A DNA stretch of 28,663 nt from Myxococcales bacterium (GTDB lineage: Bacteria; Myxococcota_A; UBA9042), in NCBI GenBank assembly GCA_037441385.1, contig JBBISH010000087.1:1-28663 (forward strand), in the 5' to 3' direction. Both the position numbers and the translations under genes were made by a program. The notes under the pieces are model-generated. The model was not told where the DNA came from. It worked only from the letters and a program-made list of their open reading frames with translations, and ran no database searches. Positions 744 to 20,635 of the stretch are shown piece after piece; the stretch's first letter is position 1; each line of letters opens with the position of its first letter.

Positions 744-911
744 GAGATCGACGGCAGGCCAGAGGCATTGCTGTTACATATCAAGCACTTCCGTCGCAAT
801 CTGGGACGATTCCCGGCAGCCGCCCACCCCATCCGGGTCGGCGACCGTCCCGGAGAGGCAACGGATCACCGCCCGCCCTGCAGTGCGCGGCGCTAATTGG
901 AGAAGGAACCC

Positions 912-2810: not shown

Positions 2811-2830
2811 CCCACCACTAGTGCCATCCA

Positions 2831-2872
2831 CGCGCCTCGGCCCGTACTGCTCCCGTACGGGACCGGGGCGCG
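2831..2872 (+). terminator. GC-rich stem-loop after dnaK (attenuator or mRNA stabiliser; no U-tract)
   Basis: CGCGCCTCGGCCCGTAC - 7-nt loop - GTACGGGACCGGGGCGCG gives a stem of about 17 bp with one bulge. Confidence 0.45.
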
Positions 2873-2935
2873 GGCGTAACCGGGACGTGGCCGTCCACGC
2901 CACTCCACCAGCGCAGCCCATCTAGCAGGTTGTCC

Positions 2936-6199: not shown

Positions 6200-6310
6200 T
6201 CCGTCCGAATCGGATCGCAAAATTCGGCAATTCTTCGGGCTCGAACCGGGGTCCCCGCCTGATTCTCGCCAGTTGCGGAACGGGTCACTGGAGCCGTACA
6301 GGCGTGAATC
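6200..6310 (+). repeat. 111-bp non-coding repeat, copy A
   Basis: Manual ungapped alignment to the reverse complement of 18479-18589 gives 89/111 identities. Confidence 0.9.
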
Positions 6311-6323
6311 AGGTGGGGTGCAC

Positions 6324-6986
6324 ATGAAACCAGCGATCCTGCTCATCGAAGACGAAGCGGCGATCGCCGACACGCTGGTGTACGCCCTGCAGGCCGAAGG
6401 TTTTGAGGTGGTGTGGCGCTCGCTGGGGCAGACGGGCCTAGCGGCGCTGGCCGAGCGCGACTTTGACCTAGCGATCCTGGACGTGGGGCTGCCCGACGGC
6501 AGCGGCTTCGAGCTCTGCAAAGAGATCCGCAAAACGTCTGAGATTCCGCTGATGTTCCTGACGGCGCGCTCCAGCGAGATCGATCGGGTGGTGGGTCTGG
6601 AGATCGGCGCCGACGACTACGTGGCCAAACCGTTCAGTCCGCGCGAAGTGTGTGCGCGGGTCAAGACCATCCTGAAGCGGAGCCGCGGCACCACCGCCAA
6701 GACGGCGCTGTTCCACGTGGATGCGGGGCGGATTCGCTACTGCGGTCAGTTGCTTTCGCTGACCCGCTATGAGCTGGGGCTGCTGCAGGTGCTGCTGGGT
6801 CAGCCGGGGCGGATCTTTTCGCGGGACCAGCTGATGGACCGGGTGTGGGGCGACGCCGAAGCCTTTGATCGCACGGTCGACACCCACATCAAGACCCTGC
6901 GCGCCAAGCTGCACCAGATCGACCCGCAGCGCGATCCCATCGCCACCCACCGCGGCTTGGGCTACAGCCTGCAGCTGGCGCCGTGA
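6324..6986 (+). CDS. creB: OmpR-family response regulator CreB
   Basis: IEDEAAIADTLVYAL, LDVGLPDGSGF, GADDYVAKPFS and DRTVDTHIKTLRAKL. Stop overlaps the creC start (GTGA). Confidence 0.92.
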   Translation: MKPAILLIEDEAAIADTLVYALQAEGFEVVWRSLGQTGLAALAERDFDLAILDVGLPDGSGFELCKEIRKTSEIPLMFLTARSSEIDRVVGLEIGADDYVAKPFSPREVCARVKTILKRSRGTTAKTALFHVDAGRIRYCGQLLSLTRYELGLLQVLLGQPGRIFSRDQLMDRVWGDAEAFDRTVDTHIKTLRAKLHQIDPQRDPIATHRGLGYSLQLAP

Positions 6987-8419
6987 AGATCAGCCTAAGA
7001 ATCCTGCTGGGTTACTTCCTGATCGTGGGGATGGCGGCGTGGTTCGTCCTCAACATCTTCATGGACGAGATCAAGCCCGGCGTGCGTCAGGCCATGGAAG
7101 ACACGCTGGTCGACACGGCGCAGGTGCTGGCGCGGCTGGCGGCGCCGGATCTGCAGGCGGGCCGGATCGGCCAGGGTGCGTTTGCTCAGGCTTTGCAGGG
7201 GCTTGAACAACAGCCGCTGCGGGCGCGGGTTTGGAATTTCTCCAAGAGCAAGGTCAACACGCGGGTGTATGTCACCGACGCGCGCGGCATCGTGCAGTTC
7301 GACTCGGCCGGGCAAGCGGTGGGTCAGGACTTTTCGCGCTGGAACGACGTGTACCTGACCTTGCGCGGGCGCTACGGCGCGCGGAGCACCCAGAGCGACC
7401 CCAGCAACGCCGACTCGACGGTGATGCACGTGGCGGCGCCGATCAAGAGCGGCGAGTCCATCATCGGCGTGCTGACCGTGGCCAAGCCCAACCTGGCGGT
7501 GGCGCCGTTCATCGAGAATGGGCGTCGCAAAATCTTTCGGGCTGGCCTGTGGTTGCTGGGTCTGTCGCTGCTGATCGGCGCGGCGGTGGCGCTGTGGATC
7601 ACCGGTTCGCTGCGGCAGCTGCTCCATTACGCCGAGCGGGTGACCCGGGGCGAGAAGGCCGAGCCACCCGACCTGGGCAGCAGCGAGCTGGCGACCCTGA
7701 GCCGGGCGCTGGCCGGGATGCGCGAAAAACTGGAGGGAAAACAGTACGTCGAGCGCTACGTGCACACCCTGACGCACGAGATGAAAAGCCCGCTGACCGC
7801 GATCGGAGCGTCGGCCGAGTTGCTGCAAGGCGAACTGCCTGCCGCCGATCGCCAGCGTTTTTCGGATGCGATCGCCGAGCAGGCTGACCGGCTGCGCCAC
7901 TTGGTCGACCGGATGCTGGGGCTGGCCCAGGTCGAGTCGCGCCAGGGCCTGCAACAGCCGGTGGCGATCGACCTGGCCTCGCTGTGTGCCGAGGTGCTCG
8001 CCACCCGCGAGGCGCAGCTGCACACCCGGCAACTCGCCGTGCAGACTCAAGTTCACGGGCCCTGTACCTTGCACGGCGACCGGTTCCTGCTGGCGCAGGC
8101 GATCGCCAATCTGCTGGACAACGCCATCGACTTCAGCCCGCCCGGCGGCACGATCGAGCTGAACGTGCAGGCCGACGACGCGCAAGTGCAGGTGCAGGTC
8201 GCGGACCGCGGGGCCGGTGTGCCCGAGTATGCCCAGGCGCGGGTTTTCGAGCGGTTCTACTCGCTCGAGCGCCCGGCCACGGGCAAGAAAAGCACGGGCC
8301 TGGGGCTACCCTTTGTGCGCGAAGTGGCTCAATTGCATGGCGGAACCGCCGCGCTGACCAACCGGCCAGACGGGGGCGCGGTGGCGACGCTGCGGTTGCC
8401 GCGCCAGCCCAAAGCCTGA
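6983..8419 (+). CDS. creC: Sensor histidine kinase CreC
   Basis: RILLGYFLIV, DFSRWNDVYLTLRGRYGARST, LEGKQYVERYVHTLTHEMKSPL H-box, NLLDNAIDFSP and KSTGLGL. Confidence 0.95.
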   Translation: MKISLRILLGYFLIVGMAAWFVLNIFMDEIKPGVRQAMEDTLVDTAQVLARLAAPDLQAGRIGQGAFAQALQGLEQQPLRARVWNFSKSKVNTRVYVTDARGIVQFDSAGQAVGQDFSRWNDVYLTLRGRYGARSTQSDPSNADSTVMHVAAPIKSGESIIGVLTVAKPNLAVAPFIENGRRKIFRAGLWLLGLSLLIGAAVALWITGSLRQLLHYAERVTRGEKAEPPDLGSSELATLSRALAGMREKLEGKQYVERYVHTLTHEMKSPLTAIGASAELLQGELPAADRQRFSDAIAEQADRLRHLVDRMLGLAQVESRQGLQQPVAIDLASLCAEVLATREAQLHTRQLAVQTQVHGPCTLHGDRFLLAQAIANLLDNAIDFSPPGGTIELNVQADDAQVQVQVADRGAGVPEYAQARVFERFYSLERPATGKKSTGLGLPFVREVAQLHGGTAALTNRPDGGAVATLRLPRQPKA

Positions 8420-8439
8420 GTTCAAGCCAAAAAACGCAC

Positions 8440-8477
8440 TTCACCCTGACTTCACCGTCGGCTCATCGTGCCTTCAC
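8440..8477 (+). promoter_or_regulatory. cre-tag (CreB binding site), four units at 11-bp period
   Basis: TTCAC(8440)-N6-TTCAC(8451)-N6-CTCAT(8462)-N6-TTCAC(8473) upstream of creD. Matches the known TTCACnnnnnnTTCAC motif. Confidence 0.88.
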
Positions 8478-8521
8478 CCGGCCCCGCAAAACTGGGACTC
8501 CAACCTGTTCTGGAGTCCGCC

Positions 8522-9946
8522 ATGTCGCAAGAAATCTACAATAAGCTCCTTGCCGATTCCCCGTTGCCGCCACCGCCACCGCCGCTGCCGCCGCGGTCGG
8601 CCAAGCCCAAGTCGAGTGGCCTGCTGACGCGCCTGCTGGTCATTGCCGCCATGATGCTCGCGCTGCTGATCCCGCTGCAGATGATCGACGGGCTAGTCCG
8701 CGAGCGCCAGGCGCAGAGCCGGTCGGTGGTCCAAGAGATCGCCGAGAGTGCCAGCGGCGCGCAGCGACTGCGCGGCCCGTTGCTGGTGGTGCCCTACCGC
8801 GAGCGCAAAGTCGTCACCGAAGAGGTGGTGGTGCAGCAAGACGGCAAAGCCAACACGGTGGTGCGCAGCAAAGAGTTGTTCGAGGACCACGAACGCATTT
8901 TGCAGCCGGCCACTTTGCAGGTCGCGGGCGCGGTCAGGACCGACACGTTGTACCGCGGCCTGTACCAAGCGCTCACTTTTACCTCGCAGACCAAGATCAG
9001 CGGCACGTTCGACTTGGAGATCGCTGACTTGGCACGCGATCCCAGCGTCACCATTGGCGAAGTCCGCCTGGCGGTGGGGGTGGCCGACGTGCGCGGTATC
9101 CGCAACACGCCGCGGCTGCGCTGGCAGAGCACCGAGGTCGAATTCCTGCCCGAAACCGGCGTGTCCAAACTGGGGCAGGGCATCCACGCGCCGATCGCAC
9201 TGGCCAAGCTGGGGACCAGCGGCAGCGCGGCATTTACCTTGGAACTGGAACTCTTTGGCACCGAGGCGCTCTCGTTCAGCCCGGTAGGCAAGGACACCCG
9301 CGTGCAGGTCCAGGCCAACTGGCCGCACCCGTCGTTCTTTGGCCGGGCGTTGCCCAGCCACCGCGAGGTGCGCGACACGGGCTTTTCCGCAGACTGGCAC
9401 AGCACTTGGCTCAACGCCGGCGGGGGCCGCGTGACCAAGGACGCCAGCGACGACGAGCAGGAATTCGGCGTGCGCTTCATCCAGCCGGTCGACCAGTACC
9501 TGCAGACCGACCGGGCGATGAAGTACGCGATCTTGTTCGTGGTCCTGACCTTTGCCGGCTTCTTCTTGTTCGAAGTGCTGCGGCGCCTGCGCGTGCACCC
9601 CATGCAGTATGGCTTGGTGGGCGCGGCGCTGGCGATGTTCTACCTGCTGCTGGTGGCTCTGTCCGAACACTTGGAATTCGCCGTGGCCTACGCCATCGCC
9701 GGGGCCGCTTGCGTAGGACTCATCGGCTTTTACGTGGCTCACGTGCTGCAGCACTGGCTGCGCGGCCTTGGCTTTGCCGGCCTGCTGGGCCTGCTGTACG
9801 GTACGCTGTACGCGTTGCTGCAGTCCGAGGACAACGCCCTGCTGCTGGGCGCGGGCCTGCTGTTTGCCGCCTTGGCCGCGGTGATGGTCCTAACGCGGCG
9901 GCTCGACTGGTACAACCTGGCGACGCCGGCCACCGAAGGGCCGTGA
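8522..9946 (+). CDS. creD: Inner-membrane protein CreD
   Basis: LLIPL...LVRER, WPHPSF, DRAMKYAILF, HPMQYGLVG, LLLVALSEH, LLQSEDNALL and TRRLDWY. GGAG RBS before ATG 8522. Confidence 0.95.
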   Translation: MSQEIYNKLLADSPLPPPPPPLPPRSAKPKSSGLLTRLLVIAAMMLALLIPLQMIDGLVRERQAQSRSVVQEIAESASGAQRLRGPLLVVPYRERKVVTEEVVVQQDGKANTVVRSKELFEDHERILQPATLQVAGAVRTDTLYRGLYQALTFTSQTKISGTFDLEIADLARDPSVTIGEVRLAVGVADVRGIRNTPRLRWQSTEVEFLPETGVSKLGQGIHAPIALAKLGTSGSAAFTLELELFGTEALSFSPVGKDTRVQVQANWPHPSFFGRALPSHREVRDTGFSADWHSTWLNAGGGRVTKDASDDEQEFGVRFIQPVDQYLQTDRAMKYAILFVVLTFAGFFLFEVLRRLRVHPMQYGLVGAALAMFYLLLVALSEHLEFAVAYAIAGAACVGLIGFYVAHVLQHWLRGLGFAGLLGLLYGTLYALLQSEDNALLLGAGLLFAALAAVMVLTRRLDWYNLATPATEGP

Positions 9947-12154
9947 TCACGCGGCAATCGGTCGACCAAAGTGGGTGCGCGTCTGGATGCCCGCCGCCTT
10001 GAGCAGCCCGGTCGGCAGCGTGCCGCCGATCGAAACGAGAACATCGTCGGCCTGGAACTCGGCGCCATCCTTCAGCTTGACCCGGCTCGCTTGGATCTCG
10101 CTCAGGCCCGTGTTCAGGTGCAGCGTGATGCGTCCGTCGGCCACCTGGGCTTCGAGCAACTCGCGGTTGCGCGCCTTGGCGCGATCGAACACGTCGCGGC
10201 GGTGAATCACGTGCACTGCCTTGGCCCCAGCTGCGGCGCAGGCCAGGGCGGCCTCCAGCGCCGAGTCGCCGCCGCCCACGACGCACACGTGGCGATCGCG
10301 CATCTGATCCGGATCTTGCAGGTTGTAGCTGACGTGGGGCAGCTCTTCGCCCGGCACCCCCGCGCGCATCGGCGTGCCGCGCCGGCCCAGGCACAACAGC
10401 ACCCGCCGCGCCCGCCACTGCTGGCCCTTGGCCGTGACCACAAAGCCGCTACCGCTGGCATCGGCCTCTAGGGACTCGACCGCCACGCCAAACTGGATGT
10501 TGGGCTTGTGTGTGGCCTTCAGCTGCGCGAAGAATTCGACCAGCTCCTCTTTGAACACGTTGAAGAAGCGGGCGTTTCCGTGCAGCGGCATGTGCATGGG
10601 CGCCGTCATCACCAGCTTGCGCCGGGGGTAGTGGCGCACCGCACCGCCGATGTCCGGTTCCTGCTCGACCGTCAGGTAGTTGAGCCCCAGTTCCTGCGCC
10701 GCCAGCGAGGCCGCCAGTCCGGCCGGCCCGGCGCCGACGATCAGCAAATCCAGCATCCCCGCCGGTAGCGAACCGCGCTCGCGCTCGTGGTCGCGGTGGA
10801 TGAAGCCCACGGCCTGGGTCGCCTGTTCCACGGCGTTGCGCACCAGGCCCATGCCCGTAAGCTCGCCCGCCAAGAAGATGCCGGGGGTCGACGCCTCGTA
10901 ATTGGGCGCCACGTCGGGGATATCCACGCCGCGCTTGAGCGTGCCGAACACGAGCGAAATGGCGCCTACCGGGCAGTTGGCGGCGCAGGCGCCGTGGCCG
11001 ATGCAGTGGCTGGGCTCGGCGAGTTGGCCGCGACCCTCGACCAGCGCCAGGATGTCGCCCTCGGGACACGACGCCACGCAAGCCGCGCTGGCCATGCACT
11101 TGTTGGGATCCACCCAGGGGTGCAGCGTCGGCGGCGGCTCGGGCGGCGGACCTACGTTCTTGATCTTGGCGGCGGCCTTGCCGCGCCGGTACAAGCGCCG
11201 CCAGCGCCCCTCCCAGCCACCAAACCCCACCAGGGCCAGCAAAAATCCCACACCCCATGCCCAAGTCGGCCCCGGCAAGTCCCAGGGGTAGCCGTGGGCA
11301 AAGGCACTGCGAATATGCAAGAAGGCCGTCGCCACCATCACCAGCGCGGCCAGCAGGTGGATCAAACGCCAACGCCGCAGCAGGGCCGAGGCCGCCGCCG
11401 CCAGCGCCAATTCCTGGCCGGTGCGCAGCAATTCGATCGCCAGCCGCCGCACCGCTTGGCGCTGCTCCCCATGCAAATCGGCCGCCTCGCGCTGCAGCCA
11501 GCGCGCCACCCACAGCGGTCCCAGCAGGCGCCGCGCCGGGCCCAACAGCAGATGCACGAAGCCGCGGCGGGCGCTGGCCCTGCTTTCGATGCGGGTGCGG
11601 GCGGCCAAGCTCTCCAACGCGTCGCGGCCTTCGGGCCACAGTTCGCGCAGCTCGACCAACAACGCCGAGCCGCGGCCCCGCAGCCCGTCCGGATCCTCTT
11701 GGCCAAAGGCCGTGTGCGGCACCAGGGCGTAGATGTAGCGGCCGATCACGCCCGTGGCCAACAGAGCAATCACCGCCAGCGCCGACCAGCGCGCCGCCTC
11801 GCTGGTCATGTGGAAGTTGGCGTGGAGCAGCAACAGGCCGCCGCCCAGCAGGCCAAAGAACACGTGCGCACTCATCCAGTGGCGCAGGTGGCCCCATTTG
11901 TGCCACGACCGCAGGCGCCGACGCAGTCCGTAGGCCAGGTTGGCCAAGAACATCGCGACCGCGAGCGTGCCGAGCCCGCGGCCGACGGGTCCAGCCGATC
12001 GCCACCGGTCGTACCACGGGTGGTCCAGCTGGGCATCGCCGACGATCTCGTAGAAGTCGCGGGCGTATTGGTAGACCATGCCGATCACCAGCGCCACCAG
12101 CGCCAACAGCAGCAAATCGATGGTGGTCTGGCGCAAACGCCGCGGCGGGGCCAT
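9947..12154 (-). CDS. Fused ferric-reductase-like (di-heme b) membrane domain + ferredoxin-like domain + FAD/NAD(P)H oxidoreductase
   Basis: About 6 TM helices with two H-x13-H pairs. Fe-S motifs CMASAACVASCP and CIGHGACAANCP. Flavin domain motifs GAGPAG, VGGGDSA and HRR. Confidence 0.85.
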   Translation of the reverse strand: MAPPRRLRQTTIDLLLLALVALVIGMVYQYARDFYEIVGDAQLDHPWYDRWRSAGPVGRGLGTLAVAMFLANLAYGLRRRLRSWHKWGHLRHWMSAHVFFGLLGGGLLLLHANFHMTSEAARWSALAVIALLATGVIGRYIYALVPHTAFGQEDPDGLRGRGSALLVELRELWPEGRDALESLAARTRIESRASARRGFVHLLLGPARRLLGPLWVARWLQREAADLHGEQRQAVRRLAIELLRTGQELALAAAASALLRRWRLIHLLAALVMVATAFLHIRSAFAHGYPWDLPGPTWAWGVGFLLALVGFGGWEGRWRRLYRRGKAAAKIKNVGPPPEPPPTLHPWVDPNKCMASAACVASCPEGDILALVEGRGQLAEPSHCIGHGACAANCPVGAISLVFGTLKRGVDIPDVAPNYEASTPGIFLAGELTGMGLVRNAVEQATQAVGFIHRDHERERGSLPAGMLDLLIVGAGPAGLAASLAAQELGLNYLTVEQEPDIGGAVRHYPRRKLVMTAPMHMPLHGNARFFNVFKEELVEFFAQLKATHKPNIQFGVAVESLEADASGSGFVVTAKGQQWRARRVLLCLGRRGTPMRAGVPGEELPHVSYNLQDPDQMRDRHVCVVGGGDSALEAALACAAAGAKAVHVIHRRDVFDRAKARNRELLEAQVADGRITLHLNTGLSEIQASRVKLKDGAEFQADDVLVSIGGTLPTGLLKAAGIQTRTHFGRPIAA

Positions 12155-12169
12155 GGCAAGCCTCTGGAG

Positions 12170-13861
12170 TTAGAGTCGGTACGTCAGGGTGGCGGTGGCG
12201 TCGAGCCAATTGCTCTTTGCCGGCACGTCGGTCCACAGCGTCTGCCGTCCACCGACGGACATGCCGATGATCCACGGATGGCGGCCCCAGTCCATACCGG
12301 CGCGCACATCCAGCGCTTCGGCGCTGCTGCTGCTCGTCTCGACCCGGTCATGCGACCAGCGCAGCCGCGCGTGCCAGCGCCAACGCGGCCCCGGCGACCA
12401 ATCCGCGCCGGCCGACAGCGAGCCGCCCGACAAGTACGGCCCCGTCTGCACCACCGCGACGAGCTGACCGTTCCAGTTCGGCCCCGGCCAGTTCGGTCGC
12501 AGCGCTTGCAGCGTGCCGCCAAACCGCCAGCTTTCCCAGGGATCCTCCGACGCGGTCAAGCTGCTCCAGAGAGCGGTCGAGGTCTGCCAACCGCGCCAAC
12601 TGGGCAGATCCAGCCAGGCCGACAGCGAGTGGCTGGTCGCGGTGCTCCAGCCCTGGTTGGGCAGCACCCAGGCCAATTCGCGCGTGAGTTCGCTGCGCAA
12701 GAAGGTGTAGCGCAGGCGCGGGCGCCAGTCGCCCAACCAAGTTGGGGCGTAGTCGACCACAGCGCGCACGGGGCGCCACCCGGCCTTGGCCGGCCCTTGA
12801 TCGGCCCACGCCGTGCCGCTCAGGTCCGCTTGGCCCGCTGCCCAGCCAAAGTCCCCTTGCAGCAGACCCAAGCGCGGGTGTTCGGCCCGCCATAGCAGCG
12901 CCCCCAGCTGGCGATCCCAGCCGCCGGCCACCTTGCCGGTCGACCAGTCGGCGCCCACCACGCTCTGCCAGCCGGCCACGGTGCCGCGCAGTCGTGCCGC
13001 GCCGCCCACCCGCCACGCATCCTGGCGGAAGCCGGTGCTGACGATCGACGGCAACAGCCCGCCAAACCCAGTGATTTCCAGCTGCGGCAGCGGCCGCACC
13101 AGCAGTGTCGCTCCATCCACGGTGGCCGAGCCCGCGCCCTCGGGCACCCACACCCGGCCCAGCGCCGCGCCCCAGGCCCGAACTGCGTTGGGGTCCACGG
13201 ACAATTGGGCCTGCCGCACCTGCATTGCCCGGCGCTCGCTCGCACCGGGCTGGGCCAGCCACTGCTCCACCCAGATCGCCGCGTCGTGGCGCCACGACAG
13301 CGGAGAGCCGCCAATGCCCTGCCACTGCACGTTGTTGCCGATGCGGAGCAGGGCCCATTGCTCGCCTTGGCCGCCGCGCACGCCCGCCGCCACCACCGTC
13401 ACTTGGCCGTCCAGCCGCCGATCGGGATCCTGGCCGCGCGGGCGCGGGTCGTCGATCCACGGCGTCTGCTTGCGCGACCAGGCTTCCCACTGCTCGGCCA
13501 GGGCCCGCTCGCGCGCCGCTTCCTGGGCATCCTTGGCCGGTGCCACCTTCCATGGCTCTCGCGGCGGCGCCTCCATTTGCGGACCGCTGCGGGGAACGGA
13601 GACCTTCTGATGCAGCTTGGCACCCGAGGCCAGGTCGGACTGGAGCCGGGCGTGCTGGCCCACCACTTCCACGACCTGCAGCGGCCGACCCTTGGGCACC
13701 AGCGCCAGTTGCGCCCCTTTGCTCAGCTGCTCGCCGGGCTCCAAGCGCACGAACACTTCGCGGCCAGCCGCCGCCACGCCCACCACTTCGGCCGCGGCCG
13801 CCGCGCGCGCCAGGCCTGCACCGGCCGCAATCAGAAGCACCAAGCTGCGCAAGTTCGCCAT
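12170..13861 (-). CDS. Probable outer-membrane beta-barrel (porin-like) protein
   Basis: ATG 13861 lies 2 nt after the upstream stop. Signal peptide, small N-terminal beta-rich domain, then Trp/Gly-rich amphipathic strands ending ATATLTYRL. The 5' extension in the ORF track overlaps the cytochrome gene. Confidence 0.7.
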   Translation of the reverse strand: MANLRSLVLLIAAGAGLARAAAAAEVVGVAAAGREVFVRLEPGEQLSKGAQLALVPKGRPLQVVEVVGQHARLQSDLASGAKLHQKVSVPRSGPQMEAPPREPWKVAPAKDAQEAARERALAEQWEAWSRKQTPWIDDPRPRGQDPDRRLDGQVTVVAAGVRGGQGEQWALLRIGNNVQWQGIGGSPLSWRHDAAIWVEQWLAQPGASERRAMQVRQAQLSVDPNAVRAWGAALGRVWVPEGAGSATVDGATLLVRPLPQLEITGFGGLLPSIVSTGFRQDAWRVGGAARLRGTVAGWQSVVGADWSTGKVAGGWDRQLGALLWRAEHPRLGLLQGDFGWAAGQADLSGTAWADQGPAKAGWRPVRAVVDYAPTWLGDWRPRLRYTFLRSELTRELAWVLPNQGWSTATSHSLSAWLDLPSWRGWQTSTALWSSLTASEDPWESWRFGGTLQALRPNWPGPNWNGQLVAVVQTGPYLSGGSLSAGADWSPGPRWRWHARLRWSHDRVETSSSSAEALDVRAGMDWGRHPWIIGMSVGGRQTLWTDVPAKSNWLDATATLTYRL

Positions 13862-13863
13862 CG

Positions 13864-15414
13864 TCAATCCGCGTAGCCGTAGGGGTGGCAACTGACGCAA
13901 GCCGTACTGGAGTAGACGTAGCCGCTCACTTCGCCGGCGTGCTTGCTGTTGGTCTTGCTCGCCGTGTGGCAGCCGCCGCTGATGCACGAATAGGCGGCGA
14001 AATTAGCCGGGTTCGTGTGGCACTTGTTGCAGGCCAGGGCGTGCTTGCCACTGGTGATCGGAAATTTGTGCGCCGGATAGCCCGCCGGGCTCCACGCCAC
14101 GGTCGAGTGACACGTCTGGCAAGTAGTTGGCAACCCTAGCGATTTGTGATTGGGGTTGGTGGTGGCGTTGTAGTCGGGCTGGTGGCAGCCGCTGCACACC
14201 TTGGGCGGTTTGACGCCGGGGGTGGTGTGGCACGACTCGCACGGCGCGGTGGCGTGCTTGTCCGTCAGCGGGAAGTAGTTGTTGTGGTCAAATCCGCTAG
14301 CTGGCTTCCAGCCTGCCGTGGTGTGGCACGTGTCGCAACTGGTCGGGAAGCCGACTTTGCTGTGGTTCGGGTTGGTGGTGCCTTGGTACGCCGGTAGGTG
14401 GCAACCGCTGCATATCTTGGTGGGTTTGTCGCCCGGGGTCTGATGGCAACCTCCGCAAGCCGCGGTCTTGTGCTTGCCGGTCAACGGGAAGAACTTGTCG
14501 TGATCGACGTTGGTCGCCGGTTGCCAAGCGCTCGTGCTGTGGCAGGTCTCGCAAGTCTGCGGGATCCCTACGGCGGCATGGTTCGGGCTGGTGGTGGCCT
14601 GGTAGTTCTTCAGGTGGCACGCGCTGCATACCTTGGCCGGCTTCATCCACGGATCCGAGTGGCAGTTCTCGCACGCCGTCGCCAGGTGCTTGCCCGTCAG
14701 CGGATAGGCCAGGTCGTGGTTGAAGCCCGGCGCCGGCTGCCAGCCCAGGGTGTTGTGACACTTGCTGCAATCTGTTGAAAATCCTACATTTTTGTGAGTA
14801 GGCTTGCTCGTCGCGTCGTAGTTGCCCTGATGGCAGCCGCTGCACACCTTGGGGGGCTGGTCGCCCGCCGTCTTGTGGCAGGCGTCGCATGCCAAGCCTT
14901 TGTGCTTGCCGGTCAGCGGATAAAAAAGGTCGTGATCGATACCCACGGCGGGCTTCCAGGCCTGCGTGTTGTGGCAGTTCTGGCAGGTTTTGGGGGTGTT
15001 CTGCTGCACATGGTTGGGCTGCTGGGCGTTCTGGTAGTCCTTCAAGTGGCAGTTTACGCAAGCTGAATCGAGCGTGACCGAAAAGTCGCCGTGGCATTGC
15101 GCGCAGGTTGGCCCCACGTGCTTGCCCGTCAGCGGCCAAATTTCTTGGTGATCAAAGCCAGTGGCTGGCTGCCAAGCTTTGTTGCTGTGGCACGTTCCGC
15201 ACTTGAGCCCGAATTCCAGCACCTTGTGTGGTGGTTTGGCCGAATTCTGGTACTCGTGCAGATGGCAGCCGTAGCAGGTCTGCCCCGCGACGGTCGCCGT
15301 GGTCGTGCTTTGCGAACTGGCCGACTGGCAGCCGCCCGCCAGAGCGAGCAGAGCCGCGATCCCCAGCGCCGCCGCTAGTCGGCGCCAGCTAATGGTGCTT
15401 GCCGTGACAGTCAT
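13864..15414 (-). CDS. Multiheme cytochrome c lipoprotein (19 CxxCH + 1 CxxxxCH)
   Basis: Lipobox-like LLALAGG-C. Heme motifs counted by hand, arranged in 72-aa tri-heme repeats with PLTGKH. Confidence 0.93.
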   Translation of the reverse strand: MTVTASTISWRRLAAALGIAALLALAGGCQSASSQSTTTATVAGQTCYGCHLHEYQNSAKPPHKVLEFGLKCGTCHSNKAWQPATGFDHQEIWPLTGKHVGPTCAQCHGDFSVTLDSACVNCHLKDYQNAQQPNHVQQNTPKTCQNCHNTQAWKPAVGIDHDLFYPLTGKHKGLACDACHKTAGDQPPKVCSGCHQGNYDATSKPTHKNVGFSTDCSKCHNTLGWQPAPGFNHDLAYPLTGKHLATACENCHSDPWMKPAKVCSACHLKNYQATTSPNHAAVGIPQTCETCHSTSAWQPATNVDHDKFFPLTGKHKTAACGGCHQTPGDKPTKICSGCHLPAYQGTTNPNHSKVGFPTSCDTCHTTAGWKPASGFDHNNYFPLTDKHATAPCESCHTTPGVKPPKVCSGCHQPDYNATTNPNHKSLGLPTTCQTCHSTVAWSPAGYPAHKFPITSGKHALACNKCHTNPANFAAYSCISGGCHTASKTNSKHAGEVSGYVYSSTACVSCHPYGYAD

Positions 15415-16432
15415 AGCATGCCCCCGAATTCCAAGAGTAGTTGCCAATCCCGCCGTGCTCCTTTGCCATCGCCGCTTGGTTGTGCTCGTGGCAGCTCGTG
15501 CAGATCAACGTGTTGCGGTCATAGCCCCCGCCGTGGCAGGCGGCACAACCCAGGCCCGCGTGCCCCCCTGAGCTGATGCGGTAGTAGCTGTCGTGCCAGG
15601 TGGCCTTGAGCACATGCCAGCCCAGCGCTGTATGACAGTTGTCGCATGTGGTCGAAAAGTTCATTTGCTTGTGATCGGGATGCGCCGTCGCGGCCAGCGC
15701 GCCATGGCAGCCCACGCAGGCGCCGCTCTTGCCCTTGTACTGGCCGCTGGCATGGCAGGTGTCGCAGCTCAGCTGGCCGTGCTTGCCGTCCAGCGGCCAC
15801 CAGACCGCGTGGTTGACGCGCGCCGGGCTCCAGGCAAACGTGCCGTGGCAGGTCTGGCAGCCTGGGCCAAAGCCCGTCATGCGGTGATCGGGCTTCTTCA
15901 CCGCCAGCGCCAGGTTCTGGTGGCAGTCGCCGCACACCGTGGGAGTGCCCCGGTAGACCGTGCCGCCCAGCCGCGTGTGGCAGGCGCGGCAGTCGGTGGC
16001 GGTGTGGGCGCCCGTGAGCGGGAAGCGCGAGGTCTCGTGCGAGGGTAGGCTGCGCGGGGCAAGCCAGTTGGTGGCCGAGTGGCAGTTGGCGCAGTTTTCG
16101 CCGAGTTCGCCGCGGTGCGGGTCGCGATGGCATTGCTCGCAGGTCTTGGGGACTTTGGCCTGGCTGCGCTCGGCCGGGCGGTGGCAGCCGCTGCACGGGG
16201 CGCGCGCATGGGCTCCAGTCAGCGGGTTGCCGGTCTTGGCGTGATCAAAGGCCACGTTGTCGCTGAGCCGCGACCAGCCCGCGGTCTGGTGACACGGCGC
16301 GCAAGACCATGGATCTGTGGCTGTTTCTGCAGGCTTTGCCGCAGGTGCGGCCGTCTGCCGCGGGGCAGCTACGGCAAGGCCAACCCACACGACGGCCGCC
16401 GCCAACGAACCCGCCAAGGTGCGTACGGTCAT
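15389..16432 (-). CDS. Periplasmic multiheme cytochrome c (13 CxxCH)
   Basis: Start MTVRTLAG overlaps the upstream stop (ATGA). Signal peptide, 13 CxxCH and PLxGxH repeats. Confidence 0.93.
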   Translation of the reverse strand: MTVRTLAGSLAAAVVWVGLAVAAPRQTAAPAAKPAETATDPWSCAPCHQTAGWSRLSDNVAFDHAKTGNPLTGAHARAPCSGCHRPAERSQAKVPKTCEQCHRDPHRGELGENCANCHSATNWLAPRSLPSHETSRFPLTGAHTATDCRACHTRLGGTVYRGTPTVCGDCHQNLALAVKKPDHRMTGFGPGCQTCHGTFAWSPARVNHAVWWPLDGKHGQLSCDTCHASGQYKGKSGACVGCHGALAATAHPDHKQMNFSTTCDNCHTALGWHVLKATWHDSYYRISSGGHAGLGCAACHGGGYDRNTLICTSCHEHNQAAMAKEHGGIGNYSWNSGACYDCHGKHH

Positions 16433-18282
16433 GGCTGCCTCCGCGGCACGTGGGGGTTGCGGTGGCACTGCTCGCACGCAGTCACGCCGATGCGGTAGAA
16501 CGTGACGTCGCGACCGTCGGCGGCTGGCCGATCGGGGTGGCATTTGGCGCAGGCCACCTGCATGTGGCGGCCATCCAGGGCAAAGCGCGTGCGGTTGTGG
16601 TCAAACTTGGCGATCTTGAAGGTGGCCTCTGGCCGGTGGCAGTCGTCGCAGCCGCGGACGGGATCGCTGGCGACAAACTGCCCGGCATGGCGGTCGGCGT
16701 GGCAACCCTGGCAACTCTGCTTGCTGCTTGCGAATTGGACGGGTTGGCCGGGAGCTGGGCGCAGGTGGCAGGCTTGGCAGGTGGGCTTGGCGTGGCCGCC
16801 GACCAGGGCAAAGCGGGTCTTGTTGTGGTCGAAGCGCGGCGCCGGCACAAAGGCTTGGTTGGTGTGGCACGTCTCGCACGGCCGCACCTGGTCGCCCTGG
16901 CGGAACTGCCCGCCGTGCACATCTTTGTGGCAGCCTGCGCAGTCCTGCGGTAGGTCGCGCAACTGGGCGACTTTGCCTCCGTCTGGCGCGACTTCCCCGC
17001 CCTTTTGCTGCGGGCGGTGGCATTGCGTGCACGCGACGACCCGGTGGGCGCCCTCGAGCGGGTAGCGCGCTTGACCGTGTTGGTCCACACCGTAGTCGGC
17101 GGGCGCAAAACCCTGCACGCTGTGGCAGGTCTCGCACCGATCGCCCTTGGCCACGGACTTGAACGGGCCGCCGTGCGGATCCTTGTGGCAGTCCAGGCAC
17201 GTGTCGCCGTCGCGGCCAAGGTACTTCTTGCCGTAGCTGCCGGTGCCCGAGTGGCAGCTGCTGCAGGCGACCTTTTTGTGCATGCCCACCAGCGGATAGT
17301 GGGTGCTGTCGTGGTTCCAAGGTGCGCCAGACAACATACGAAAATCCATGAAACCGTGACACTTCTTGCAGTCCGCGCCAAACCGCCGCTCGTGGGGATC
17401 TTTGTGGCAGGCGGCGCAGGCCGCGTCGACCGGACCAAAGCCCGGCTTGCCGCCGGCCTTGGCGGCGTTGGTCGACGTCTTGTGGCACTTCTCGCAAGCA
17501 ATTTCTGCGTGTTGCCCAAGAAGTGGCAAGCGCGTGCGCTGGTGCAATTCCAGCGCCGAGCCGCGGCTGACCTTGGCCCAGTCGTCGTTGCTGTGGCAAT
17601 CCTTGCAGTCCCTGCCGCCGGCGTGTCCCGCCTTGGGTTCGCGGTGGCAGTCGGCGCAGGCGGCAAAGGCGATGCCGCGGAATTTTCCCTTGATACCGGT
17701 AGCTTCGTGGCATTTTTGGCACGCGACGTTCTTGTGCTTGCCCACCAACTTCATGCGCGCCGTGTCGTGGCTGAAGCGGTCGGCCCCGGCGAACTTCTTG
17801 TCGCTGTGGCAGCCTTCGCACTTGTTGCCCAGGCTGGGTTGGTGGCTGTCGCGGTGGCAGTTGCTACAGGCGGTCTTCAGCCCCATCCAGTGCTGCGGCA
17901 CAGCGTGACAGTTCTTGCAGGCAACGATGGCGTGCGCACCTTGCAGCGCAAAGCCCGTGTCGCCGTGGTCAAAGGTCTTAGGCGGAGTCCAGCGCACCAT
18001 GGCAAAATCGCGTCCACGGTGATCGCGGTGGCAGCCGGCGCAGGTCTTCTTGGCTTCTTGTGCTTGATTCCAGTGGAATTTTGAAGTCTTGGCTGCTTTG
18101 TGGCACTCAAGACATTTGTCGTCGTTGGCGCCCTTGCCCTCGGTGTGGCACTTCTCGCACTGCTCGTTGTACTTGGCGTGGGCGCTAGCAAGCGGGCCGG
18201 GCGAGGTGAACTCCTGCCCCACCGCCACAGCGCTCCAGAGCCACGCGGCCGCCGTCACCAGCAAACTGATCCGTAGCGGCAT
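16429..18282 (-). CDS. Periplasmic multiheme cytochrome c (23 CxxCH)
   Basis: Signal peptide, SPGPLASAH N-terminus, and 23 CxxCH in tri-heme units with [FY][PA]LxGxH and DxH distal histidines. Confidence 0.94.
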   Translation of the reverse strand: MPLRISLLVTAAAWLWSAVAVGQEFTSPGPLASAHAKYNEQCEKCHTEGKGANDDKCLECHKAAKTSKFHWNQAQEAKKTCAGCHRDHRGRDFAMVRWTPPKTFDHGDTGFALQGAHAIVACKNCHAVPQHWMGLKTACSNCHRDSHQPSLGNKCEGCHSDKKFAGADRFSHDTARMKLVGKHKNVACQKCHEATGIKGKFRGIAFAACADCHREPKAGHAGGRDCKDCHSNDDWAKVSRGSALELHQRTRLPLLGQHAEIACEKCHKTSTNAAKAGGKPGFGPVDAACAACHKDPHERRFGADCKKCHGFMDFRMLSGAPWNHDSTHYPLVGMHKKVACSSCHSGTGSYGKKYLGRDGDTCLDCHKDPHGGPFKSVAKGDRCETCHSVQGFAPADYGVDQHGQARYPLEGAHRVVACTQCHRPQQKGGEVAPDGGKVAQLRDLPQDCAGCHKDVHGGQFRQGDQVRPCETCHTNQAFVPAPRFDHNKTRFALVGGHAKPTCQACHLRPAPGQPVQFASSKQSCQGCHADRHAGQFVASDPVRGCDDCHRPEATFKIAKFDHNRTRFALDGRHMQVACAKCHPDRPAADGRDVTFYRIGVTACEQCHRNPHVPRRQP

Positions 18283-18478
18283 CCAGAAGCACTCCCACCG
18301 CCCGATCGTTGCCCAAGGCGGCCCAAGGCGACGATAGCGATGGACTGACCGCCCCAGTATGGGATTTGTCTAAGGTTTCTCTTAGAGAGCCACCGCCGAT
18401 CCATGTCGGTAGCGCGATTTTCCCGTTCTGCAACCCACGAGAATTGGGTGTGGGCCCCAGTTCATACGAACCCTGTCG

Positions 18479-18589
18479 GATTCACGCCTGTACGGTTTCC
18501 CTGACCAAGCTTGCAACAGGCGAGAATCAGACGGGAACCCCGGTTCGGGCCCGAAGAGTTGCGGGAATTTTCGCGCCGATTCAGACGGA
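18479..18589 (-). repeat. 111-bp non-coding repeat, copy B
   Basis: Reverse complement is 80% identical to 6200-6310, and the last 17 nt (CCGTACAGGCGTGAATC) are identical. Confidence 0.9.
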
Positions 18590-18596
18590 TTCGAGA

Positions 18597-19862
18597 TCAG
18601 TCGATGCGGAAGTAGAAGCTCTTGCCCACGCGGTGAATGGCGCCGCGCTGCAGGACCTTTTCGTCGGCGGGCACGGCTCGCCAGCGGCTGCGCTCTTTGA
18701 CTTCCAGATCGGTGCGCGCCTCGATGCGAATGTCGTTGCCCTGGGCGTGCAAAACCAAGACGCCGCCACTGCCGCGCCGCACGGTCATGCCGCTGCCGTC
18801 GAACGTGCAGGTGGCCGAGCGATAGAAACCGCGCCGCCCGCCCGGCGCCGAGTACAGCGGCCGGCCGCCGTCGCGCGCCAAGTGGCTCTCTTGCGCGCCC
18901 ACAAATAGCACCGCCGACTTGGGGAAGGAGTGCGGCTTCAAGAAGCCCACCAAAATGAAGATGAACAGCGCCAGGCCGATCGCGCCGGCCAGGAAGGGCC
19001 AGTAGCAGAACCACATCGGGTTGGCCGTGACCGCAGCCTTCAGCAGCACGGCGGTGGCGCGGTCGGCCTCGACCAGGCCCTTGCCCACGGGCGCCAACAG
19101 CACTGCTTCTTGGGTGTCGGCGGGCACCGGCTGGCAGCGCGGCGCCGCGTAGCAGAGTTCCAAGGGCTTGTCGGCCGCCCAGGCAATGGCGATCGCCGGC
19201 GCGCCGTGCTCCAGGGGGTACAGCGGCGAGCCGGTGCCCTGTCGCACATGCACGCGGAGCTCGGGCCAGCCTTTGAGACCGCCGGGCTGCGCGGCCGGGC
19301 GAGATAGCGCCAATTTCTGGCCGCCGCGGAGCTGCTGGCTGCCGCTCAAGTCCACCGGTTTGCAGTGCTCGTCCAGGGCGCAACCCGAGAGGACTTGGGC
19401 AAAATCTAGACCAGCCCCGGCCTTGAGGCGCACGTTGGGCAGCACGGTAATCGTGATCGCCGGGCCTTGCTGCAGCGCACCGCCCACCTTGGCCTGCAGC
19501 CGCGCGTGCAAGGTGCCGCTGGCGGGCGCCGTCCACTGCAGCTTGAAGTCACCGCCGTCGCGCGTCAGGGGCGTGGTCTTGCCGTCGACCTCCAGCTCCA
19601 ACGAATCAAGCTGGCTCTTGAGCCACGCGTCGGATACCGGTTGGCTGTCGCTGCGGCGAATCTTTAGCGTTCGCGCAAGGTTGGTGCCTTCCAGGACTTC
19701 GGCGGGCAGCGGCGGCGGCGGCAGATTCCAGCCGTCTGACAGCGGTTCGCCTGCGGCCCATGCCGGCGCGGTGGTCGGCGGCGCTACCAAGAGGGCCGCG
19801 ACCAAAACGGCCCAGGCCACCAGGAGTCTTGGCAGTGCTCGTTGGCAGACCCTTGGCAACAT
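18597..19862 (-). CDS. Exported single-pass membrane protein of unknown function
   Basis: Likely start MLPRVCQ at 19862, since the longer ORF overlaps the tRNA. Signal peptide, beta-rich ectodomain with paired Cys, TM helix (FLAGAIGLALFIFILVGFL) and a cytoplasmic tail of about 115 aa. Confidence 0.7.
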   Translation of the reverse strand: MLPRVCQRALPRLLVAWAVLVAALLVAPPTTAPAWAAGEPLSDGWNLPPPPLPAEVLEGTNLARTLKIRRSDSQPVSDAWLKSQLDSLELEVDGKTTPLTRDGGDFKLQWTAPASGTLHARLQAKVGGALQQGPAITITVLPNVRLKAGAGLDFAQVLSGCALDEHCKPVDLSGSQQLRGGQKLALSRPAAQPGGLKGWPELRVHVRQGTGSPLYPLEHGAPAIAIAWAADKPLELCYAAPRCQPVPADTQEAVLLAPVGKGLVEADRATAVLLKAAVTANPMWFCYWPFLAGAIGLALFIFILVGFLKPHSFPKSAVLFVGAQESHLARDGGRPLYSAPGGRRGFYRSATCTFDGSGMTVRRGSGGVLVLHAQGNDIRIEARTDLEVKERSRWRAVPADEKVLQRGAIHRVGKSFYFRID

Positions 19863-19898
19863 GCTGGAATCCAGCGCAAACGCGGTGTTTGGGTGCGG

Positions 19899-19970
19899 AG
19901 CGGGCGACGGGATTCGAACCCGCAACATCCAGCTTGGGAAGCTAGCGCTCTACCGTTGAGCTACGCCCGC
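19899..19970 (-). tRNA. tRNA-Gly (anticodon CCC)
   Basis: GCGGGCGTAGCTCAACGGTAGAGCGCTAGCTTCCCAAGCTGGATGTTGCGGGTTCGAATCCCGTCGCCCGCT forms a cloverleaf with GTTCGAATC T-loop and U discriminator. It is followed by CCG, so CCA is not fully encoded. Confidence 0.97.
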
Positions 19971-20020
19971 ACTTGGGGTACTTGCGCCGTCGTGGCCTTG
20001 CGAAGCGACGACGCGGCTGT

Positions 20021-20050
20021 CAAATACCCCTTTCTGGCCCCTCGTGTCAA
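20021..20050 (-). promoter_or_regulatory. Candidate promoter for the tRNA
   Basis: TTGACA (20050-20045), 18 bp, then TATTTG. The -10 match is weak. Confidence 0.35.
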
Positions 20051-20068
20051 CGCCTGCCGCGCCGAGGC

Positions 20069-20635
20069 TCAGTTGACGGTGACCTTCATCGCCAGCTTTT
20101 CGTCGCGCAGCATGTAGCACTGCTCGCTGCTGCAGACCGAGAAGCTGCCTACGATCTCCAGGTTGCCCGAACCGGCCGCCAAGCCTTGCAGAGGCACGCT
20201 GACCACACCGGTCTCGCCCTCGATCTTGACCTCGCCGCCCTTGGTGCTCAGCTTGTCCTTGGTCGATTTGGCGAACGCTGCCGCCGTGACCGCGAACTTG
20301 GCCGGGTACTCGGCGTTGAAGTGCAGGCCCGCTGCGGGCTTGATGGTCAGCTTGAACTCGCCGGTCGCGCCGACCTTCAGGGTCACCGCGTCCGCGACCA
20401 CCGTGTATTGCTTGTCGCCGGCCGGCGCCGCCTCGGGCTGAGCTTGACCCGCTGCGGGCGCAGCCACGGCCGGGGCTCCAGCTTGGGGGGCCTGGCCCTG
20501 CGGAGCTTGTGCCTGCGGGGCAGCCGCTCCGGGTTGGGCGGCGGATCCGGGCTGGACCGCCTGACCTTCGCGATTGCAGGCCACCACCGCGGCCAAGCTC
20601 ATCGCCACCACACTCGCCATCCACAACGTCCGCAT
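20069..20635 (-). CDS. Lipoprotein with Ala/Pro/Gln linker and DsbD-N-like Ig domain
   Basis: AGGAG RBS, lipobox VVA-C, low-complexity linker, then GLHFNAEYP...FSVCSSEQCY with a terminal Cys pair. Confidence 0.7.
   Translation of the reverse strand: MRTLWMASVVAMSLAAVVACNREGQAVQPGSAAQPGAAAPQAQAPQGQAPQAGAPAVAAPAAGQAQPEAAPAGDKQYTVVADAVTLKVGATGEFKLTIKPAAGLHFNAEYPAKFAVTAAAFAKSTKDKLSTKGGEVKIEGETGVVSVPLQGLAAGSGNLEIVGSFSVCSSEQCYMLRDEKLAMKVTVN

Follow-up and report, generated by a model that had tools for sequence, protein, structure and literature searches.

We analysed a window of 28,663 nucleotides, a whole contig (C87, JBBISH010000087.1) of a Myxococcales bacterium genome of 6.6 Mb and 221 contigs that is estimated to be 90.9% complete, and within it an operon of five genes, here called A to E, that encodes three multihaem cytochromes, a cysteine-free protein modelled as a barrel, and a predicted inner-membrane oxidoreductase. 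The five open reading frames (ORFs) lie on the minus strand between positions 9947 and 18282, just where the original prediction had placed them, and both their coordinates and their junctions agree with its description of tightly packed or overlapping genes (Table 1). The open frames of A and E coincide with the tabulated genes, and those of B, C, and D extend over 15389-16543, 13864-15447, and 12170-13987, respectively; gene starts and targeting signals within these frames were read by eye from the sequence. The likely ATG of B overlaps the TGA of A (ATGA), C probably starts 26 nucleotides inside B, D probably starts 2 nucleotides past the stop codon of C, at the coordinate first proposed, and E starts 15 nucleotides past the stop codon of D. 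Together, A, B, and C carry 55 CxxCH motifs and one CxxxxCH motif, and the predicted total of 56 c-type haem sites was recovered in full.

Table 1. Features of the operon and of the gap upstream of it. Positions are those of the window; aa, amino acids.
Feature	Position	Strand	Description
Gene A	16429..18282	-	617-aa secreted cytochrome; 23 CxxCH, 26.8 aa per haem; signal-peptide-like start
Gene B	15389..16432	-	347-aa secreted cytochrome; 13 CxxCH; signal-peptide-like start
Gene C	13864..15414	-	516-aa lipoprotein cytochrome; lipobox LAGG-C29; 19 CxxCH and 1 CxxxxCH
Gene D	12170..13861	-	563-aa cysteine-free protein; signal-peptide-like start, beta domain 24-74, helix 112-137, modelled 22-strand barrel 150-562
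Gene E	9947..12154	-	735-aa inner-membrane fusion: two-haem-b-type membrane domain, ferredoxin-like domain, FAD/NAD(P)H flavoprotein
E, residues 1-335	11150..12154	-	Membrane domain of the PCC3/PCC4 inner-membrane-protein ('IMP') type, with a sixth helix
E, residues 345-403	10946..11122	-	Ferredoxin-like two-cluster domain; Pfam Fer4_10, E 4.8e-09; Fer4 dicluster match over residues 346-395
E, residues 469-735	9950..10750	-	Thioredoxin-reductase-fold flavoprotein; Pfam Pyr_redox_3, E 2.2e-34
Intergenic region upstream of A	18283..18596	-	314 nucleotides; presumed operon promoter region, from gene spacing

That these genes form one conserved unit is indicated by the 15 related loci with a fused E that we examined. 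In all 15, the gene immediately upstream of E is D-like, and 14 have multihaem cytochrome genes, the remaining locus ending inside D; the oxidoreductase was thus found with cytochromes in other genomes, as had been expected. A promoter would be presumed in the gap before A; a consensus scan found no sigma-70-like site there, and within the operon neither promoters nor terminators stood out above chance. No tandem repeat was found in the operon at the DNA level.

The three cytochromes match the cytochrome c7/c3 Pfam families, with about 27 residues per haem site (Cytochrome_C7, E 1.5e-24 for A and 9.2e-17 for B). A is homologous, for almost all of its length, to the 21- to 24-haem cytochromes that stand beside stand-alone membrane proteins in metagenome loci (28-34% identity over 553-689 aligned residues, E 1e-55 to 1e-103); it is predicted to be periplasmic and is probably a periplasm-spanning wire. 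In B, all 13 CxxCH motifs are invariant among eight orthologues. A and B are separate proteins with 23 and 13 haem sites in six of the 15 related loci and are fused into one protein with 36 CxxCH motifs in five others (L044, L045, L046, L049, and L051), which suggests that they form one continuous wire. C is built from six tandem repeats, each of 72 residues and three haem sites, in which the spacings between sites are 25, 32, and 15 residues; a two-site C-terminal module follows. A C-type gene is present in 11 of the related loci and absent from three (L006, L041, and L047), one locus being undecidable. The 11 orthologues (L004, L005, L042, L044-L046, and L048-L052) contain 4, 7, 10, 13, 16, or 18-19 CxxCH motifs, always with one additional site of the CxxxCH or CxxxxCH type (our script counted both spacings). 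Since these counts step by one three-haem repeat, the length of the wire appears to change in whole three-haem units. With its lipobox, C is a candidate surface cytochrome.

Protein D has no match in Pfam or NCBIfam, and a word-based search gathered 13 relatives including D itself. With 12 of them as input, AlphaFold2 gave a model with a mean pLDDT (predicted local distance difference test score) of 73.8 that forms 22 strands. Foldseek matched this model to outer-membrane barrels only (best E 2.4e-09), and VIA-align ranked 22-strand TonB-dependent transporter barrels first, several of them at a Z of about 17, the best being the 22-strand FyuA barrel (Z 17.7, root-mean-square deviation [rmsd] 5.3, 376 residues aligned). 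MtrB (6r2q_B; Z 15.6, rmsd 7.1, 353 residues aligned) is one among many barrels at a Z of about 15-18. The modelling thus upholds the proposal that this gene encodes a barrel and predicts a large outer-membrane barrel, without singling out MtrB. Ahead of the barrel, residues 24-137 comprise a conserved small beta domain (pLDDT 70-79), low-confidence linkers, and a long helix, and they could form a plug or a periplasmic docking domain. A complex prediction for D (residues 24-563) with B (residues 24-347) gave a score of 0.01 against a mark of 0.32, which counts neither for nor against binding.

Protein E has nine cysteines and no CxxCH motif and is encoded in a single copy, with no second copy of either its membrane domain or its flavoprotein found in the host genome. 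The claim that it fuses His-paired helices to iron-sulfur (Fe-S) and flavin/NAD(P)H modules proved correct: six helices with two WxxxHx13H motifs are followed by a Fer4 domain and a Pyr_redox_3/Pyr_redox_2 domain (residues 469-727). According to the positive-inside rule, the N terminus and the long loop formed by residues 143-256 are cytoplasmic, and helices 3 and 5 both run from the inside to the outside. Helix 3 carries W93-x3-H97-x13-H111, helix 4 carries T134-G-x-x-G138 (TGVIG), and helix 5 carries W262-x3-H266-x13-H280. By this orientation, H97 and H266 would lie near the cytoplasmic face and H111 and H280 near the periplasmic face, and the inside N terminus together with the positively charged cytoplasmic loops would also place the Fer4 and flavin domains in the cytoplasm. 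An alignment of E with 89 stand-alone relatives shows no variation at H97, H111, G135, G138, W262, or H266, and at least 90% of the 90 members keep W93 and H280.

The fold of this membrane domain is more difficult to place. Its AlphaFold2 model (pLDDT 86) had no Foldseek match in the PDB at E <= 0.001, and the best VIA-align match, at Z 10.8, is below the level that is meaningful for helical bundles. Among the matches under this threshold are the two-haem proteins 4D2 (designed; Z 10.7), Escherichia coli superoxide oxidase (9.9), Dcytb (9.7), cytochrome b561 (9.7), STEAP4 (Z 9.1, rmsd 4.9, 163 residues), and STEAP1 (8.9); the structural likeness to STEAP and cytochrome b561 proteins (Z 8.9-9.9) is accordingly below significance. 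Of the 90 aligned members, 76 weakly match DUF4405, 48 Ferric_reduct (PF01794; best E 1e-04), and 44 Ni_hydr_CYTB (best E 1.1e-05), and the domain from the window itself matches no Pfam family at E values up to 1, PF01794 included. A word-based search found two short relatives only, and a look-up in the ESM Atlas gave only unnamed 'hypothetical protein' clusters. These weak matches mark the family as a putative remote member of the two-haem cytochrome b group.

The two redox domains that follow deviate from their textbook relatives. Ferredoxins of the 2x[4Fe-4S] type carry two CxxCxxCxxxCP motifs with eight Cys residues; E belongs to the matching fold family (Fer4_10) and has the motifs C353-x2-S356-x2-C359-x3-C363-P and C384-x2-H387-x2-C390-x3-C394-P, with six. 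Thus, the predicted Fe-S motifs are present, in a Fer4-type domain, and have to be described as three-Cys motifs in which Ser356 and His387 replace the second Cys. Both residues and all six Cys are invariant among 25 aligned sequences; in the 120 best homologues, the second motif always has His, and the first divides equally between Ser (60) and Cys (60). The clusters would be of either the 3Fe or the mixed-ligand 4Fe type.

By sequence, the nearest solved relatives of the flavoprotein domain are thioredoxin reductases, ferredoxin-NADP reductases of the thioredoxin reductase (TrxR) type, and YpdA/Bdr. It contains a GAGPAG motif (FAD site) and a GGGDSA motif followed by HRR (NAD(P)H site). None of the 120 homologues, E included, has a CxxC motif other than in the Fer4 motifs, which argues that the domain, lacking the redox-active CxxC that thioredoxin reductases have in their NADPH domain, is not a disulfide reductase. 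The best NCBIfam match, to YpdA, reaches 125.4 bits against a cut-off of 339.9, and the thioredoxin reductase model TIGR01292 reaches 60.8 bits against 343.45. The corresponding GGGPCG motif of YpdA has Cys where E has Ala. We therefore rejected the assignment of E as a thioredoxin or bacillithiol-disulfide reductase. The two-dinucleotide-binding fold without a CxxC disulfide is shared with TrxR-type ferredoxin-NADP+ reductases and YpdA/Bdr, from which E differs in that its flavoprotein is fused to an Fe-S domain and a membrane domain of its own. The HRR sequence resembles the NADPH-binding motif of thioredoxin reductases. A loose text pattern found YRG in 61 of the 120 homologues and HRR in 19, with 26 unmatched; as HRR is not conserved across the family, we write the donor as NAD(P)H.

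How does this operon relate to known systems? PCC3 was defined by He et al. in 2017 (PMC5566968) as a putative cluster of a porin, a periplasmic cytochrome (median of 21 haem sites), an extracellular cytochrome (median of 34), and an inner-membrane protein. In the passages of that paper on PCC3, the periplasmic cytochrome has 21-27 haems in Gallionellaceae, the extracellular one is rich in repeats and in small residues, and the inner-membrane protein conserved in PCC3 and PCC4 is described as having about 300 residues, with WX3HX13H motifs in the third and fifth of its five helices and SGxxG in the fourth. Those passages propose that it binds two haems b, acts as a quinone-active cytochrome b, and connects the conduit with the pool of quinones. 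Periplasmic PCC3 cytochromes with 21, 24, or 27 haems and extracellular ones with 10-35 are listed by Hoover et al. (2023; PMC9900912), some clusters having two periplasmic cytochromes. (The term 'PCC3 architecture' is used in another sense in PMC13013709.)

The operon corresponds to this description in most respects. D is modelled as a porin-like barrel, A, with its 23 CxxCH motifs and presumed periplasmic location, is a very-high-haem cytochrome homologous to the 21- to 24-haem cytochromes beside stand-alone membrane proteins, and E has both WX3HX13H motifs and TGVIG. For the extracellular repeat-rich cytochrome, C offers 20 sites, a lipobox, and six repeats, and it is absent from the three related loci mentioned above. 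Because the membrane domain of E carries the published PCC3/PCC4 signature, we assign the operon, by published description and motif signature, as a PCC3-type cluster with two putative periplasmic cytochromes. The PCC3-like architecture that had been envisaged is therefore borne out, and the cluster matches no characterised complex, its sole match being the predicted PCC3. Two differences stand out. First, the published protein is a hypothetical protein of about 300 residues, probably quinone-linked, and the passages that describe it mention no flavoprotein partner, whereas here the membrane protein has gained a sixth helix and a cytoplasmic part of 400 residues that holds the ferredoxin-like domain and the FAD/NAD(P)H flavoprotein. 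Second, the host here is apparently a myxobacterium-like heterotroph instead of a proteobacterial iron oxidiser.

PCC4, as far as it is described in the text of He et al. (2017), has a membrane protein with the same motif signature and 'other redox-active proteins', and one of its subgroups has an Fe-S gene beside, or annotated together with, the membrane protein. Hyphomicrobium is the genus given there for PCC4 subgroup I, and the nearest stand-alone homologues of the flavoprotein half of E include Hyphomicrobium proteins. PCC4 differs in having 4-, 5-, and 10-haem periplasmic cytochromes and no extracellular one, in contrast to the 23-, 13-, and 20-site cytochromes of our operon.

Like MtrCAB of Shewanella and the Pcc conduit OmaB-OmbB-OmcB of Geobacter, the operon would join multihaem cytochrome in the periplasm to a barrel in the outer membrane and a lipoprotein cytochrome at the surface. 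Unlike those of MtrCAB and MtoAB, however, its cytochromes lie far under the cut-off of the DmsE/MtrA family (TIGR03508; 67.3 bits for A and 32.8 for C against 192.2, with no match for B), and its barrel has about 22 strands. MtrCAB and Pcc receive their electrons from quinol dehydrogenases such as CymA, ImcH, and CbcL. A cytoplasmic NAD(P)H flavoprotein that feeds two stacked haems b, each with two His ligands, is instead the design of NOX, FRE, and STEAP proteins and of MsrQ with its flavin reductase, and E would share it. On helices 3 and 5, the paired His residues are separated by 13 residues, and the haems that they are predicted to hold would carry electrons across the membrane, a possible further likeness to NOX and ferric reductases. 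The dehydrogenase part is unrelated: E has a thioredoxin reductase fold and two putative Fe-S clusters, whereas NOX and ferric reductases have FNR-like FAD_binding_8/NAD_binding_6 domains, neither of which Pfam found in E (its matches are Pyr_redox_3, Pyr_redox_2, and Fer4). The acceptor would differ as well, being a multihaem wire instead of O2, an Fe-chelate, or MsrP.

The link between the membrane domain and the flavoprotein does not depend on the window alone. A search with E returned 27 proteins (P0001-P0027, E included) of 731-751 amino acids with 95-100% coverage and 48-82% identity. It also returned four fusions of reversed order (751-776 amino acids), in which an anchor helix, Fer4, and the flavoprotein precede the membrane domain (members of this permuted kind include proteins from Archangium- and Myxococcaceae-named metagenome-assembled genomes), and hundreds of stand-alone Fer4-flavoproteins of about 435 amino acids that are about 50% identical to the C-terminal half of E. 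An exhaustive search with the membrane domain alone gave 1400 representatives at E <= 0.001. The same Pyr_redox_3 flavoprotein is attached to 19 of the best 150, in most cases together with its Fer4. Four of the 19 have the membrane domain in front and 15 have it at the end, three of these 15 showing no Fer4 domain. The fusion makes sense topologically, in that the five-helix protein is predicted to end in the periplasm and the single anchor helix of the stand-alone flavoprotein would correspond to helix 6 of E.

We furthermore determined how the two proteins are distributed in a phylum sample of 401 genomes. The full-length fusion was found only in the window's own family, in 13 other genomes (matches that begin no later than residue 13 and end no earlier than residue 733) and in two more where it is cut by contig ends. 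The membrane-domain profile matches 126 genomes. Of the 110 membrane-domain matches that ranked best, 76 have a flavoprotein match from the strongest 94 no more than 10 kb away on the same contig; 16 of these pairs overlap, 13 are at most 150 nucleotides apart on the same strand, 17 lie within 1.5 kb, and 30 are separated by 1.5-10 kb. At genome level, 85 of the 86 genomes with the flavoprotein also have the membrane protein, compared with 41 of the 315 others.

The same association recurs beyond this lineage, with a flavoprotein that stands alone. With a Hyphomicrobium-named stand-alone homologue as the query, we found 35 loci on metagenome contigs (52-67% identity). Of the 21 loci with at least 1 kb of sequence upstream of the flavoprotein, 13 have the membrane protein (12 divergent, one on the same strand); the membrane protein is followed by a 21- to 24-CxxCH cytochrome homologous to A in 11 loci, and a twelfth ends within the cytochrome. 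Two other genomes (L007 and L008) show a split form, in which the same components are distributed over two divergent operons, one with genes for the membrane protein, two cytochromes of 23 and 10 haems, and a 575-residue protein, the other with an 11-haem lipoprotein followed by the flavoprotein. The 575-residue protein has the size of a barrel and resembles D weakly (25% identity over 227 residues, E 5e-04). Three of the metagenome loci with the stand-alone flavoprotein have a very large cytochrome near the membrane protein, which contains 28 CxxCH motifs at L083 (1-2223, plus strand), 32 at L084 (12276-15344, plus strand), and 42 at L079 (3-3971, minus strand).

Taken together, fusions in both orders, a conserved neighbourhood, and co-occurrence in 85 of 86 genomes strongly support, at the level of sequence comparison, that a PCC3-type membrane protein works with a flavoprotein partner, and the proposed connection of the membrane domain to an FeS/FAD/NAD(P)H module is upheld by them. 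The reading that we favour, with moderate confidence, is that the operon encodes a PCC3-type conduit whose inner-membrane component is fused to its own cytoplasmic NAD(P)H input and exports electrons outward, in the manner of NOX, without an obligatory quinone. In this scenario, NAD(P)H would reduce the FAD of the thioredoxin-reductase-fold domain, from which electrons would pass through two Fe-S clusters, one with a His and one with a Ser in place of a Cys ligand, to a haem b on the cytoplasmic side (His97/His266) and then to a haem b on the periplasmic side (His111/His280). From there they would enter the presumed periplasmic cytochromes A and B, which some relatives have as a single 36-haem protein, traverse the outer membrane inside or by way of barrel D, and reach the 20-site lipoprotein cytochrome C, which would pass them to an extracellular acceptor, for example, Fe(III) or Mn(IV) minerals or humic matter. 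The design would be that of a transmembrane electron exporter like NOX or a ferric reductase, coupled to a haem wire and equipped with an unrelated dehydrogenase module.

Several points weigh against this reading. The genomes behind the flavoprotein counts are related and are thus not independent samples, and 34 of the 110 best membrane-domain matches have no flavoprotein from among the 94 strongest on the same contig. The membrane domain of E itself matches neither a Pfam family nor, significantly, a solved fold, and it may contain a quinone site. Outward flow from NAD(P)H through a two-haem wire would conserve no energy and would consume membrane potential, making a respiratory role unusual. 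Finally, PCC3 has been discussed as a candidate for Fe(II) oxidation, that is, for inward flow, and, according to the part of a preprint that deals with Sideroxydans sp. CL21 (10.1101/2025.02.27.639646), the membrane component of one PCC3 copy is significantly upregulated in iron-oxidising cells.

Were the two-haem domain to trade electrons with the pool of quinones, E would act either as an oxidoreductase (NAD(P)H:quinone or quinol:cytochrome) or as a regulator of this exchange. This is the role of a quinone-active cytochrome b suggested for the membrane protein in the relevant passages of He et al. (2017; PMC5566968). It would fit the 44 of 90 family members that weakly match Ni_hydr_CYTB, which is the quinone-reactive prokaryotic cytochrome b561 family, and the 41 sampled genomes that have the membrane protein and no close homologue of the flavoprotein. 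We nevertheless consider it unlikely: the fusion in both orders and the 85/86 co-occurrence point to a direct exchange between the Fe-S domain and the cytoplasm-side haem, and no quinone-binding motif was identified in E, none being specifically testable. In NOX and ferric-reductase proteins, a pair of bis-His haems across the membrane transfers electrons without a quinone, and such a pair would suffice here as well. The quinone-free chain of the original prediction is plausible.

The direction of flow is a separate question. The conduit could instead collect electrons from Fe(II) outside the cell, from a mineral, from a cathode, or from a partner cell, and E would use them to reduce NAD(P)+ or another cytoplasmic acceptor, as a direct shortcut for 'reverse electron transport'. 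TrxR-type ferredoxin-NADP reductases are reversible enzymes, which would permit this, and the upregulation in Sideroxydans CL21 points the same way, as does the enrichment of PCC3 clusters in Fe(II) oxidisers in the portions of PMC5566968 and PMC9900912 that bear on it. Energetically, however, inward flow to NAD(P)+ is unlikely, because transfer from Fe(II)-type donors to NAD(P)+ runs uphill in redox potential, up to about -320 mV from far more positive donors, because negative charge would have to move toward the side of the membrane that is already negative, and because the operon encodes nothing to pay for such a transfer: no ion channel, ATPase, or bifurcating partner is found in it. Nor does the host look like a lithoautotrophic iron oxidiser, since no RuBisCO large subunit was found in its 90.9%-complete genome, which contains two haem-copper oxidase genes; the same two results make it look like an aerobic or microaerobic heterotroph, apparently from groundwater. 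Inward flow strikes us as quite unlikely overall, and outward flow is favoured; the original suggestion that the chain could run in either direction is not supported.

If export is the direction, its lack of energy conservation would suggest redox balancing or a non-respiratory use such as the mobilisation of iron and manganese from minerals. Yeast and plant ferric reductases mobilise iron reductively for uptake, and NOX proteins produce extracellular superoxide. By analogy, the operon could drive NADPH-dependent export for reductive Fe/Mn mobilisation, for extracellular superoxide, or for the detoxification of metals or oxidants at the surface. This would be in line with the design shared with NOX and ferric reductases, the presumably energy-dissipating export step, the HRR sequence with its likeness to an NADPH-binding motif, and a host that has oxidases for aerobic respiration. 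Yet 56 haem sites and a dedicated barrel would be costly for assimilation, HRR is not family-wide (19 of 120, against 61 of 120 for YRG), and no siderophore or iron-uptake genes were found adjoining the operon. As the main function of the conduit, we give this little chance and continue to favour quinone-independent outward export from NAD(P)H.

The PCC3 gene cluster is already in print as a genome-based prediction. For its membrane protein, we found no description of a flavoprotein or NAD(P)H partner in the literature searched, where the identities of the PCC4 redox genes are given only in a supplementary figure image. New here are the flavoprotein link, the fusion in which the membrane domain comes first, the complete operon on one strand, the series of 23 plus 13 versus 36 haems, and the series of three-haem steps in C. 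This opens the way for a broader hypothesis, which we put forward tentatively and with somewhat more doubt than belief. PCC3-type wires in general may be the output of an unrecognised NOX-like entry point in the inner membrane, split or fused, instead of being quinone-linked iron oxidases. Equipped with FAD/NAD(P)H, a pair of Fe-S clusters, and a pair of haems b, this enzyme would drive reducing power from the cytoplasm directly across the inner membrane. If true, there would be a third class of entry for extracellular electron transfer, beside the quinol dehydrogenases (CymA, ImcH, CbcL) and the flavin-based Ndh2/EetAB systems, and in aerobic heterotrophs it could serve the mobilisation of mineral Fe/Mn or surface redox chemistry in place of respiration.

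Such a revision would matter since PCC3 clusters are widespread and serve as marker genes for iron oxidation, and the published model links them to the quinone pool via a 'hypothetical' membrane protein. The fused, permuted, adjacent, and divergent forms name a concrete partner for this protein and a concrete donor, NAD(P)H, and a single recombinant protein is enough to test the model. The direction and energetics to be expected would change, and with them the reading of PCC3 genes in metagenomes. Moreover, a single-polypeptide exporter from NAD(P)H to the periplasm would be a compact part for engineering electroactive cells.

With respect to the host, the titles of related contigs name metagenome-assembled genomes of Myxococcales, Polyangiales, and Deltaproteobacteria, in agreement with the myxobacteria-related host that had been predicted and with a heterotroph from groundwater; the habitats of the related genomes are groundwater and lakes. 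Words sampled from the stretch occurred in three sequencing runs of one study, labelled subsurface metagenome, and all of them occurred in one run, possibly the source sample; this label agrees with a groundwater host. No RNA run was listed among those that contain the stretch. The G+C content of the window is 62-72%. The host genome contains 36 stop-to-stop frames with at least four CxxCH motifs. A second multihaem cluster, on contig C11 of the same genome (G000; 37711-46192, minus strand), encodes proteins with 24, 13, and 9 CxxCH motifs, the last two lipoprotein-like. We considered it as a paralogue of the operon and rejected this, its 24-haem protein being only 24.6% identical to A (E 7e-07). 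On contig C10 (70753-80622, plus strand), an open frame of 3290 codons with 50 CxxCH motifs may encode a giant multihaem cytochrome.

Converging on the operon from its other side are CreB/CreC/CreD-like genes (6273-9946, plus strand) for a response regulator, a histidine kinase, and the membrane protein CreD, and the CreD stop codon (9946) abuts that of E (9947) with no intergenic space; this arrangement is kept in the closest relative, L004, and not in L005 or L006. Upstream of the operon, two minus-strand ORFs have no Pfam match. One (18597-19928) is 93% identical in L004 and was not detected in more distant loci, and the other (19950-20624) is 74-82% identical in L004, the only locus in whose tblastn rows it was seen. 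A 443-residue protein upstream of the operon has a signal-like start and one later hydrophobic helix. Farther away, the window contains a DnaK gene (897-2810, plus strand; Hsp70, E 3.7e-261). The long ORF antisense to it (774-2921, minus strand) matches the Pfam family NAD-GH (PF10712; E 7e-180), a family that derives from the antisense strand of hsp70, and is most likely not a gene. At the other end of the window, an open-ended ORF of more than 860 amino acids (26078-28663, plus strand) contains a MopE-type putative metal-binding motif (PF11617; E 6.2e-13).

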